Assembly: GCA_963693365.1 (NCBI GenBank)
Contig: CAVNZM010000013.1
Coordinates: 7,770,398-7,834,397 of the forward strand
Origin: Amoebidium appalachense
Lineage: Eukaryota; Protista; Ichthyosporea
Direction: 5' to 3'
Length of the DNA: 64,000 bases
The notes below the pieces were generated by a model that saw only the letters and a list, made by a program, of their open reading frames with translations, did no database searches and was not told the origin of the DNA. This document shows, piece after piece, positions 24,309 through 27,300 of this stretch. The position numbers and the translations under genes are program-made. Position 1 is the stretch's first letter, and every line of letters starts with the position of its first letter.

Positions 24309-27300
24309 TTACTTGGGATCTTCCGGCGGGCCTTGTACCGTCTCTCCGTTGAGTTCTTGCATGGGGATGTTGTTGGTCTGGTCTGATACTTGCTGCTTTG
24401 TGTGTGTGTGTGTGTGTGTGTGTGTGTGTGTGTGTGTGTGTGTGTGTGTGTGTGTGTGTGTGTGTGTGGTGTTGATGCGCACACACATAGCGGTGAGAGA
24501 GGAGGCGGATTAGAATGCAATACGCAGTCTGACGGACAGACTCAACGGATGATAATGCACATCATGCATTGACAGTTCCAAATGTAGCAGAAAGGAGGCT
24601 CGGGGGGGGGGGGGGGGGGGGGGGGAGGGGTTTGAATGCGGAACACGGTACGAAGTACGCATATACGACGAGAAGCATGGTGCAGGACACATGCAAAGGC
24701 AAACATTCAAGTATGCAACATCAGCCATGCGCACAGTATGCGTCATAAGCAGAGCCCATCCTCAGGGAGGACCCAAGTCATCAATTGCGTCTAAGTTTCG
24801 ACCCCTTAGCCCGCGTATATAAGACGCGGGGGGGGGGGGGGGGTTTGGAATGCGTCAAAAAGTACGAAGTACACAAGAACAAACGGATAACACGATGCAG
24901 AATGCAAGCCATACATAAAGAGTATGCATAATAAGCAGAGCCCATCCTCAGGGGGGGCCCACGTCATCCACAGTACCCGAGTTTCGACCTATTCACCTCG
25001 TTAACGAAACCCAACTCAGATACTGTTTCACTTGAACATGGGTAGGTCACCCGTCTTGATCAGAGACGAGCAGGGTTGCTTATGCAGGCAAGGGCAGTGG
25101 GAAAGGCCGGGGGTTAAAGTTGCAGCAGTAAGCAGAAGCAAGAAAAATATAGATAGGAACTCAGGAAACGGGGCTTCTAGGAAGCTCCCCCGTCGATACC
25201 TAAGTCGATACTTCCCTGGCTAACATACTACACCAGCTGAAAAGAATAAAGTCCCGAAGGCCGCAGAATTCGCAATCAGAGGGGAAAATATGAGATTTGA
25301 CCCACGCCGCAGGGTAGTAACATGCTTACTAGGGCGGAACTTTATCGTCTTCGAACGGAAAGCTATGCCCCCGGATGTCAGCCGGAAATATGGTATCACC
25401 CATTGCTTTGGGCTTGAAAAAAGCCAAACCGATAAGCCGAGTTATGTTACGCCGGCGGGTAACATGCCGCATGGGTTCCAAGGGAGCTGTCGCCAACAGA
25501 GCGGTGTGTGCATGCGTGCGCGTAACGCAATGTGTGAAGTGTGTCTATAGCTATGAAAGGGGGTATGCAGAAGTGGACAGATGAAGTGTGTGGAGAGAAA
25601 AACAGTAAGAAGAAAAGCAGACACCGGTATGTGCAACCCCGCACAACATACACACACACACACACACACACACACATAAATAAGCGAAGATTACAGGTAA
25701 TTAACCAGAACAACAAATGACAAGCGAAACAACAGGCGCCAAAAAAAAAAAAAAAAAAAAGAGAGAGAGAGAGAGAGAGAGAGAGAGAGAGAGAGAGAGA
25801 GAGAGAGAGAGAGAGAGAGAGAGAGAGAGAGAGGAGAGAGGGGTGTGTGTGTGTGTGTGTGGGGGGGGGGGGGGGGGGAGGGGGGGGGGGGGGGGAGGGG
25901 GGGGGGGGGTTGATGTATGCGTTAGAGGGTTGGAAATATGGAGGAGACAACAAAGAGCAACAACAAAGCGTCACAAAGGTGGGAAATCCAAAATCAAACA
26001 ATTTAAGCGTGCAGGCAGGATCACATTGTTGTGAGCGCTTATATGCAAGGAAACCATGGATATAATGCACAGAGCACTACTTGGTTAGAAGATCAAGGAG
26101 ACAACACATCATCACGAATCACACCTCCTCTACTTGTTTGGGTAACACACAGTAGGCATCACTGCCTACGTGTGCACCTGCATGTGTCATTCACTGTGAC
26201 AATGTGAATCATGCATGCTGCAACAGAACACAGGGACAAGATATGCTGTGCCCCCCCCCCCCCCCCCCCCCCCCCCCCCCCCTCTACCCACCGACCCATA
26301 CACACATGCTCCCCCACCACACCCCACCTATATACCAAATCACATAGCAAAGGCAAAAATGAGAAACGATGAAACAAAGGAGAAGCAGAGGTAGAAACAA
26401 GGATTGGAACGTGTAAAAGGGATGGTGAAGGGGGAAGGACATACCGAGGCCCTGTCGCCACCCACCTGGCTGGCAGGCACCGATCCCAGTGTAGTGCGCC
26501 CTGCATGCCTGTGTCAGCAACGGCAATATGCCCACACAGGCACTCCCTCCCGCCTTGTCTTTCAAACAGAAACACCACCATTAGCAACGAAAGTAAAAGG
26601 GTTACCCACATGCTCGAAGACGAGCACACACACACACACACATAATGTGCCATCCCAAAACACGTGCACACCACAAGGATTTACACAGGGCCACGCCATG
26701 CTTACCGTTGCCCTTTCTTGCCTGGCTGTCCAGGTACTTCTTCTCGCGCACAATCTCAATGGGTGTTGGGAAGAACGTGCAGCGCAGGTACTGTGTGCAC
26801 AACCAGTGAGCGTGATGTTTCAACCACCCCACCCGACCGAACCCAACCCCACCTCACTTCCTTTCCCTCCGCCCACCTTGCTACTACAACGTGGTTTGCA
26901 GTAACATGTGGTTGTTTGTATGTGTGCTTAACGGTGCACAACCTAATGCTGTGTACATGTATTGCGCTTGTGTATGACATTGTGTAACCCCAAAAATTGT
27001 TTAACCCCAAAGATATGGAAGACCGAGGATTACTGAAACATGAAAAAACACGAATAGACGAGCAACACCGTGCAGGGCATAGACCGGTATTAGAACTTAG
27101 GCACAAGAAACTCTCGCCTTACACCTTACACCCACGATGAAAAGCCAAGTGCAGGACAAGAACGAGACAAAGAACGATGCAACACGAAGAGAAAGGGCCC
27201 TGACCTTCTCCAAGACCAGGGGGCCCATGCATGCCACTACCGTAGCCAGGGTGTAGAGCCAGTACATGAGGTTGTTCTGTGTGTAGAACATGGACCCTGC

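Follow-up and report, generated by a model that had tools for sequence, protein, structure and literature searches.

The hammerhead ribozyme uses G12 as base and the 2'-OH of G8 as acid, and its A9 pairs with G12 beside the G10.1-C11.1 pair (Zhan 2024, PMC11300833). Eckert 2023 (PMC10085705) split this ribozyme into three blocks, C, G and S, and showed in vitro cleavage, at 0.004-0.19 per min, for the non-circular types SGC and CSG. Type SGC (HRIMA-1 and its variants) is known there from metatranscriptomes rather than from genomes of known organisms, type CSG is known from two metagenomic sequences, and the SGC-3 construct depends on a helix through which stems I and II interact. The blocks were assumed to be uninterruptible because no alignment showed more than 1-2 nt between CUGAnGA and the stems (PMC10085705). 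Here we analysed 64,000 nucleotides of the ichthyosporean Amoebidium appalachense (GCA_963693365.1, contig CAVNZM010000013.1, positions 7,770,398 to 7,834,397), which we call the window. Its minus strand carries, at 25085-24931 and within a high-copy repeat, a hammerhead-like motif in which block C is predicted to be opened between A9 and G10.1.

Hammerheads are also familiar from retroelements. The type I or minimal hammerheads of Penelope-like elements and of retrozymes without long terminal repeats (LTRs) lie near element ends, have an unpaired base 5' of stem II and were proposed to process precursor RNA (PMC4209133), and the window motif resembles them in these respects. They are nested three-way junctions with a tiny palindromic stem III through which they dimerise (PMC4209133), whereas the window motif has a long stem III and a non-circular strand order. 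The pseudoknot hammerhead of PDB 8YDC also places extra helices around the standard core and shares the G12/G8 mechanism, but its A9 runs straight into G10.1-C11.1, its connectivity is pistol-like and its block C is unsplit (Zhan 2024, PMC11300833). The Naiads, a group of Penelope-like elements, were reported to be without a canonical hammerhead; some were flagged as having an 'HHR_core' or 'HHR_half_core' (Craig 2021, PMC8557442), with core words noted in Bfor, Chem-3, Ovul and Esco and no fold given. For Chlamys/Naiad elements, shared 3' ends, truncated copies in tandem and insertion into (C)n have been described, (C)n being listed for Chlamys (PMC8557442).

We found five full copies of the motif in the window. 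By the position of nucleotide C3, subfamily B lies at 24951, 31477 and 42832 and subfamily A at 37465 and 6939. In BLAST the other two B copies (31457-31611 and 42812-42966) are near-identical to the first (98.7%), while the A copies (37445-37605 and 6919-7079) are diverged (76-78% identity); fragments also occur. All hammerhead core positions are kept in four of the five full copies. The GUU cleavage site between stems III and I and the CGAAAC word (C11.1-GAAA between stems II and III, with the A15.1-U16.1 pair) are present in all five, and the CUGANGA directly 3' of stem I reads CUGAGGA in four and CUUAGGA, at 6939-6933, in one. Subfamily D, of which the window holds the 3' part alone (62456-62572), reads CUGAUGA and thus differs at N7. 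A descriptor with the strand order II5' - X5' - III5'-UH-I5' - II3'-GAAA-III3' - X3' - I3'-CUGANGA, where X is a helix connecting stems I and II, matched four loci in the window (C3 at 24951, 31477, 42832 and 37465), and the fifth full copy missed it solely through its G5 to U change. The motifs and helices named in the earlier note were thus all located, including its CUUAGGA copy near 6935 and the subfamily D variant at the free N (C3 62567), and its minus-strand assignment, hammerhead core, helix assignments and predicted cut site are supported. A canonical reading through a second GAAAC of subfamily B (25029-25025) was dropped, as this word is missing from A and yields no good stem III.

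The helices can be followed along the first B copy in the order of the RNA, all coordinates being on the minus strand. The closing helix, P0, starts with an outer 5' strand at 25077-25083, which pairs with 24937-24931 in all seven positions of all five copies, and continues with an inner strand CCC (25073-25075), which pairs with GGG at 24943-24941; both 3' strands lie within 24931-24943, and U25072 stands opposite U24944. One inner pair is missing in the copy at 31477, and the inner part forms in the constrained folds of B1, A1 and A2. A hairpin follows (25049-25071; 8 bp in B and 9 in A), with the base GCUC/GGGU and UGAUCA in its loop, ending directly at G10.1 (25048). Stem II, whose 5' strand occupies 25043-25048, has 6 bp (GACCUA/UAGGUC in B) and differs between A and B by two double changes. 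Helix X has its 5' strand at 25035-25042, pairs over 8 bp with 24958-24965 and carries one double change; since it follows II5' and precedes I3', it connects the free sides of stems I and II. The 5' strand of stem III (25014-25026; 13 bp in B and 9 in A) ends in G16.2-U16.1, and the predicted scissile bond, placed by hammerhead geometry, comes right after GUU, between U17 at 25013 and 25012. Stem I (25010-25012 with 24952-24954) has 3 bp in B and 4 in A, shows one double change and is separated from II3' by a linker hairpin (24992-25009) with a 10-nt palindrome in B. Then come the 3' strand of stem II up to C11.1 (24986) with G12-A13-A14-A15.1 (together 24982-24991), the 3' strand of stem III (24970-24982), that of X, and finally the 3' strand of stem I with CUGAGGA and the next U (24944-24954; C3 at 24951, A9 at 24945).

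Read in this way, P0, the hairpin, X and III make up a nested scaffold, and across it the strands of stem I, like those of stem II, are complementary, giving two predicted pseudoknots. The 5' strand of stem II is detached from CUGANGA: the bases behind A9 form at most 2 pairs with II3', and II5' lies upstream. In B, G10.1 stands 103 nt upstream of A9, with P0 and the hairpin in between, as had been claimed for the opening of the chain; the inner part of P0 and the hairpin juxtapose the two nucleotides. The rod of X and III has linkers of 8 and 4 nt in B and of 13 and 8 nt in A. A single unpaired U follows A9 before P0. Precedent for an extra nucleotide between A9 and G10.1 exists in a viroid hammerhead.

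Type SGC shares with the window motif the S-G-C order, two pseudoknots, the link from I5' to II3', the interaction helix and the full core (PMC10085705). In type SGC, however, II5' follows directly after CUGANGA, whereas in the window it lies 5' of everything else and is bridged by P0 and the hairpin, so the intact block C (I3'-CUGANGA-II5') is not found. The I5'-II3' linker is typically 3 nt in type SGC and an 18-21 nt hairpin here, and the window motif is genomic. In the cyclic order of its strands the motif agrees with type CSG, from which it is obtained if the 5'-terminal X3'-I3'-CUGANGA is transferred to the 3' end; C, S and G do not follow each other in that order inside one copy, A9 and G10.1 are contiguous in type CSG and are joined neither directly nor through 1-2 nt here, and type CSG has one X-III linker where the window motif has both. 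From strand order, the motif can be described as type CSG reopened between A9 and G10.1, a point earlier assumed to be unbreakable. The earlier note had called it a new, doubly pseudoknotted permutation. The split between A9 and G10.1 is indeed new, while doubly pseudoknotted non-circular permutations, the S-G-C block order among them, have already been published and shown to cleave, and its "outer helix" pairs as stated and is to be identified with the I-II interaction helix of Eckert 2023 (PMC10085705). The novelty therefore consists in the split inside block C and the presence in eukaryotic retroelements, the S-G-C permutation class being already known. The A9-G10.1 contiguity that the motif lacks is common to every type described.

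The pairing is upheld by comparison of the two subfamilies. Pairs were counted by anchors in scripts, because the MAFFT alignment misplaces stem I. Over the shared lengths of stems I (3), II (6) and III (8) and of X (7), 7 of 24 pairs differ between A and B, 5 of them on both sides and 2 on one side, and none is broken; the proposed covariation of these four helices is thus borne out within two subfamilies. Outside the shared length, stem I has a fourth pair in A (G-C) that B lacks. All five copies agree throughout P0 (7 bp) and in the first 8 bp of the hairpin, which are therefore uninformative by themselves. Among the B copies, single changes yield a U-G pair in III, a U-G pair in X and the one inner P0 mismatch. 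When the window was shuffled 150 times with dinucleotides preserved, 0.013 loose loci were obtained per window and no strong ones. With G10.1, GUU, CGAAA and CUGAGGA held and the remainder shuffled, 217 of 20,000 sequences passed the loose test for B and 184 of 20,000 for A (about 1%), and none of the 20,000 per subfamily passed the strong test of at least 3, 6, 8 and 7 bp in I, II, III and X (1 of 20,000 in an earlier B run). The repeat family is abundant in public runs (6,832 contigs in run X3, 4,340 in X8, 13 in X9 and 2 in X12), where stem II pair 5 changes from U-A to C-G, the two sides being altered in 4.4 and 3.3% (X3) and 4.4 and 4.9% (X8), unphased. None of the 13 and 11 variant rows touches a core position, which is weak since about 2 would be expected by chance by our estimate. 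Among the X3 and X8 contigs over 24900-25110, one joint has a telomere-like CCCUA-type repeat adjoining the motif, and others represent further subfamilies with altered strands of stem III and X.

The arrangement lies outside what general searches recognise, as had been predicted: Rfam gave no match in the window at the gathering threshold. At a relaxed threshold the best Hammerhead_1 match reached 14.2 bits against 34, covered model positions 14-38 of 45 and locally paired the identical stem II strands. A C-block pattern found 1 viral and 28 metagenome loci, seemingly unrelated, and a G+C pattern at least 121 viral loci in 27 of the 64 parts of the set; none of the 150 loci from these scans fits the split-form descriptor. 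Neither a split block C nor permuted hammerheads in Naiads were seen to be described in the passages of the open literature that were examined (PMC3088659, PMC10162972, PMC13725137, bioRxiv 10.64898/2026.07.22.740005, bioRxiv 10.64898/2026.09.16.752053).

The same architecture was recognised near the 3' end of Naiad elements. File S5 of PMC8557442 was read by eye, with motif searches and with the last ~350 nt of 52 of its 54 records (the ends of Tama and Cmel left out), so that all cross-species pairings below are by-eye readings and a motif lying farther from the 3' end may have escaped notice. Nine of the 54 consensus sequences contain the split form: Bfor (a ctenophore), Chem-3 (a hydrozoan, with the 5' part containing P0 and hairpin outside the displayed sequence), Amil, Aacu and Anas (corals and close relatives of each other), Plae (an acanthocephalan), Obim and Ovul (octopus) and Esco (a squid). 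The stem sequences of these elements are unrelated from ctenophore to octopus; stem II, for instance, is GGCUCC/GGAGCC in Amil, GGCCCC/GGGGCC in Plae and GACACC/GGUGUC in the octopuses. Stem I has 6 bp in Amil and the octopuses, 5 in Plae and Chem-3 and 2 in Bfor, and the cleavage-site triplets are GUA, AUA (Chem-3) and GUU (Esco). In Amil and Plae, P0 begins right after A9 and the hairpin ends right before G10.1, with no linker, and the hairpin base GCUC/GGGU is common to the window, Bfor and Amil. Type CSG, in turn, was read in 8 of the 54 consensus sequences, all nematode: Nbra-1, -2 and -3, Hcon, Hpol, Asuum, Ppac and Parc, the last two named by file position alone. Hpol has a GUU site and Asuum an extra U after A9, and canonical hammerheads of the Hydra clade also show GUU sites and an extra base after A9. 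No clear split form was found in the Chlamys records by motif searches, which would miss motifs broken across lines, and most bivalve Naiad records show no split motif in their last ~350 nt. The split-form homologs from several phyla, as read by eye, strengthen the interpretation of the earlier note from outside the window. The 3' ends of bivalve, hemichordate and two Clytia Naiads contain, just behind the open reading frame (ORF), another conserved motif (GGGUG ... GCAGG ... GCUUAC or GCUCAC ... CACCUG), a candidate structured RNA. In the arthropod Naiads Ptep, Smim, Dst-1, -2 and -4, a C-run followed by CUGANGA stands near the 3' end and may represent further hammerhead variants.

The carrier of the motif is itself built like such an element. 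A full-length B element of about 900 nt, without a long ORF, occupies 24845-25740 on the minus strand, and its 3' end runs into poly(C); it is 98.4% identical over 898 nt to a second one at 42726-43623 (C3 42832). The other copies on this strand share the 3' end. The entire motif is retained in a 5'-truncated B copy at 31371-31646 (C3 31477) and in an A copy at 37333-37625 (C3 37465, predicted cut 37531/37530), and an A copy at 6823-7099 has it with the G5 to U change (CUUAGGA) that predicts inactivity. Shorter are an A copy at 24631-24824, truncated at its 5' end and inserted in tandem right after the poly(C) of the B element, a 5'-truncated B copy with X3', I3', CUGAGGA and the tail (44851-44976), and a B tail fragment followed in tandem by the subfamily D 3' part (62456-62685). 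Tandem arrays accordingly comprise D tail, B and truncated A at 26018-24631, A tail and B at 43883-42726, and B tail and D at 62685-62405. The tails end in C-tracts in all 5 B and all 4 A copies examined, and truncation at the 5' side is variable in position, frequently coinciding with C-tracts. A common 3' end, 5' truncation, partial tandem insertion and insertion into simple repeats are thus all found, as in Naiad and Chlamys elements; microsatellite-type targets and tandem truncated copies are likewise shared with the Naiads (PMC8557442), while the window element lacks an ORF and, as in Chlamys, is inserted in (C)n. The repeat is likely a non-autonomous Penelope-like element by this analogy, an assignment drawn by inference as the window has no Penelope reverse transcriptase (RT) motif, and the link to Penelope-like elements made in the earlier note agrees with both the homologous layout in the Naiads and the 3'-anchored, 5'-truncated tandem copies in poly(C).

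Several observations concern the element and its surroundings. On the minus strand, (TC)n and a T-run stand ahead of each full-length B copy, at 25740-25840 and 43623-43790; seen from the plus strand these are a poly(A) and an (AG)n tract. Inside B, 25262-25350 (minus strand) gives a weak full-length match to the CPEB3 model of hepatitis delta virus (HDV)-like ribozymes (13.7 bits against 35, E 2.9); by eye its P2 and P3 are badly paired, and the second B copy alters the base before CGAA, so that this is possibly a decayed HDV-like motif. A decayed B-like copy without GAAA and CUGANGA lies at 38060-38200 (minus strand), about 500 nt upstream of the A motif, and may be an older terminal repeat. 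A 557-aa open frame at 51769-53442 (minus strand) has an RVT_1 domain (E 3e-23) and looks LINE (long interspersed element)-like by eye; 105 nt from behind it are found again, in inverted orientation, at 14139-14243. It was considered as the autonomous partner and rejected, as it has no Penelope motif and no copy of the motif behind it. The window yielded no autonomous partner.

From the sequence, the window motif is probably an active hammerhead ribozyme in some arrangement; it likely cleaves its own RNA and lies near the 3' end of a retroelement that is likely Penelope-like and non-autonomous. Stems I and II would form as pseudoknots, by which CUGAGGA, GAAA and GUU would build the standard core, and the energy of the pseudoknot helices would pay for leaving the nested minimum. 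With G12 as base and the 2'-OH of G8 as acid, the assembled core would cut after U17. The chain would pass from A9 over one U into P0, and from the other strand of P0 through the hairpin to G10.1; P0 and hairpin would thus replace the A9-G10.1 bond, and the ends of the RNA would exit by a new helix inside block C. The cut, which is predicted 168 nt before the 3' end of B, would likely process read-through or tandem transcripts, possibly into circles, as templates for retrotransposition, by analogy with the hammerheads of Penelope-like elements (PMC4209133). Such a role is not supported by where the window copies are truncated: the 5' ends are not clustered at the predicted cut, one of five starting about 5 nt behind it and others about 41 and 69 nt behind or upstream.

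Folding calculations bear on this scheme. With the core and the strands of stems I and II left free, B1, A1 and A2 fold into P0, the hairpin, X, III and the linker hairpin; B2 deviates slightly and B3 lacks X. The pseudoknot helices contribute -17.4 kcal/mol in B and -20.6 in A by stacking alone, loop costs being ignored, and the scaffold costs 3.9 kcal/mol over the nested minimum in B.

Several points weigh against the proposed ribozyme and its assignment. The minimum-energy fold of A is unlike the scaffold, which there costs 8.5 kcal/mol, and z-scores of the fold are modest (-1.32 and -2.24). A competing hairpin pairs N7 and G8 in the nested ensemble (unpaired probability 0.05 and 0.09 in B, 0.01 and 0.00 in A), and cleavage may therefore be slow or regulated. 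Stem I has just 3 bp in B and 2 in Bfor, and short linkers strain the monomer (4 nt in B, 0-1 nt in Plae and Amil). Covariation in the window comes from two related subfamilies, and II5' and X were picked after the fact; position 24958, in the first X pair, varies in 2-4% of the contigs of the runs, and position 37501 (stem II pair 2 of A) in 0.4-1.1%, with no partner change listed for either. The cross-species pairs are by-eye readings rather than computed ones, Aacu is mismatched in I, II and III, and stem II of Esco is imperfect. The limit of 1-2 nt at this point in Eckert 2023 (PMC10085705) stands against two helices here, and no published hammerhead with helices between A9 and G10.1 was found in the parts of the literature searched. 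Neither a Penelope RT nor a GIY-YIG motif turned up in a six-frame motif scan of the window, and the insertion target is the (C)n of Chlamys rather than the (TA)n of Naiads.

One possibility, tentative and to be regarded as a variant within the proposed ribozyme rather than an alternative to it, is that cleavage requires two docked copies, with the GUU/GAAA loop of one pairing through I and II with the CUGANGA/II5' junction of the other, either in tandem pseudo-LTRs or between two RNAs. The X-III rod has linkers of 8 and 4 nt in B, with 0-1 nt on one side in Plae and Amil, and by our estimate (~2.8 A per bp and 6 A per nt) a monomer cannot close if X stacks on II. The window has copies in tandem, palindromes occur in both loops in B as well as in A, and minimal Penelope hammerheads cleave only as dimers and weakly (PMC4209133). 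Such palindromes, however, are not general among the Naiad homologs, and some SGC ribozymes have an X-III linker of 0 nt, SGC constructs having been assayed as single copies (PMC10085705). In Hcon, Hpol and Bfor, moreover, X (14-16 bp) approximates by eye the span of III, core and II, which suits a monomer folded back on itself. In our model a monomer would require X to be folded back along II/III with some fraying of distal III, which is tight for B, Amil and Plae. On balance folding as a single copy, with X packed back along stems II/III, is slightly favoured over docking of two copies.

It is rather improbable that the structure cleaves negligibly or no longer and is retained as a binding or priming element for the RT. 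The short stem I, the GUU site and the competing folds would fit such a role, Penelope hammerheads often have low activity in vitro (PMC4209133), and many Naiads proliferate without the motif. Yet N7, H17 and all stems differ from lineage to lineage and the catalytic positions do not, a constancy that a purely structural element would not require, and the 24 variant rows without a core change point the same way, weakly as noted. Chance resemblance within a structured repeat, which the ~1% of core-fixed shuffles meeting the loose descriptor and the lack of an Rfam match might suggest, is hardly credible given the result of the strong test, the compensatory changes and the recurrence of the six-helix order, in the same position, among Naiads from several phyla.

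The putatively self-cleaving motif also has a genic setting. A many-intron P4-ATPase (flippase) gene extends over ~26700-47050 on the minus strand, and the motif copies at 31457, 37445 and 42812 sit within its span and on its strand, so that cleavage could cut its pre-mRNA. Elsewhere in the window, a family C G protein-coupled receptor 7tm_3 domain without a close relative found lies at 19531-20325 on the minus strand (E 2e-22), and there is a weak PAS match.

Taken together, these readings make it fairly probable that Naiad-type Penelope-like elements often carry non-circularly permuted hammerheads, including a seventh topology in which block C is opened and rejoined by a helix and a hairpin, and that this split-core form is active, is conserved from ctenophore to octopus and in the window repeat, and may cut only when tandem terminal repeats dock. 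If this is true, a hammerhead topology excluded by the block model of permutations would exist, and a two-helix junction could replace the A9-G10.1 bond, which would offer a new attachment point for engineered switches. Non-circularly permuted ribozymes would move from environmental sequences into eukaryotic genomes, at high copy, and the apparent loss of hammerheads in a major clade of retrotransposons would be explained.

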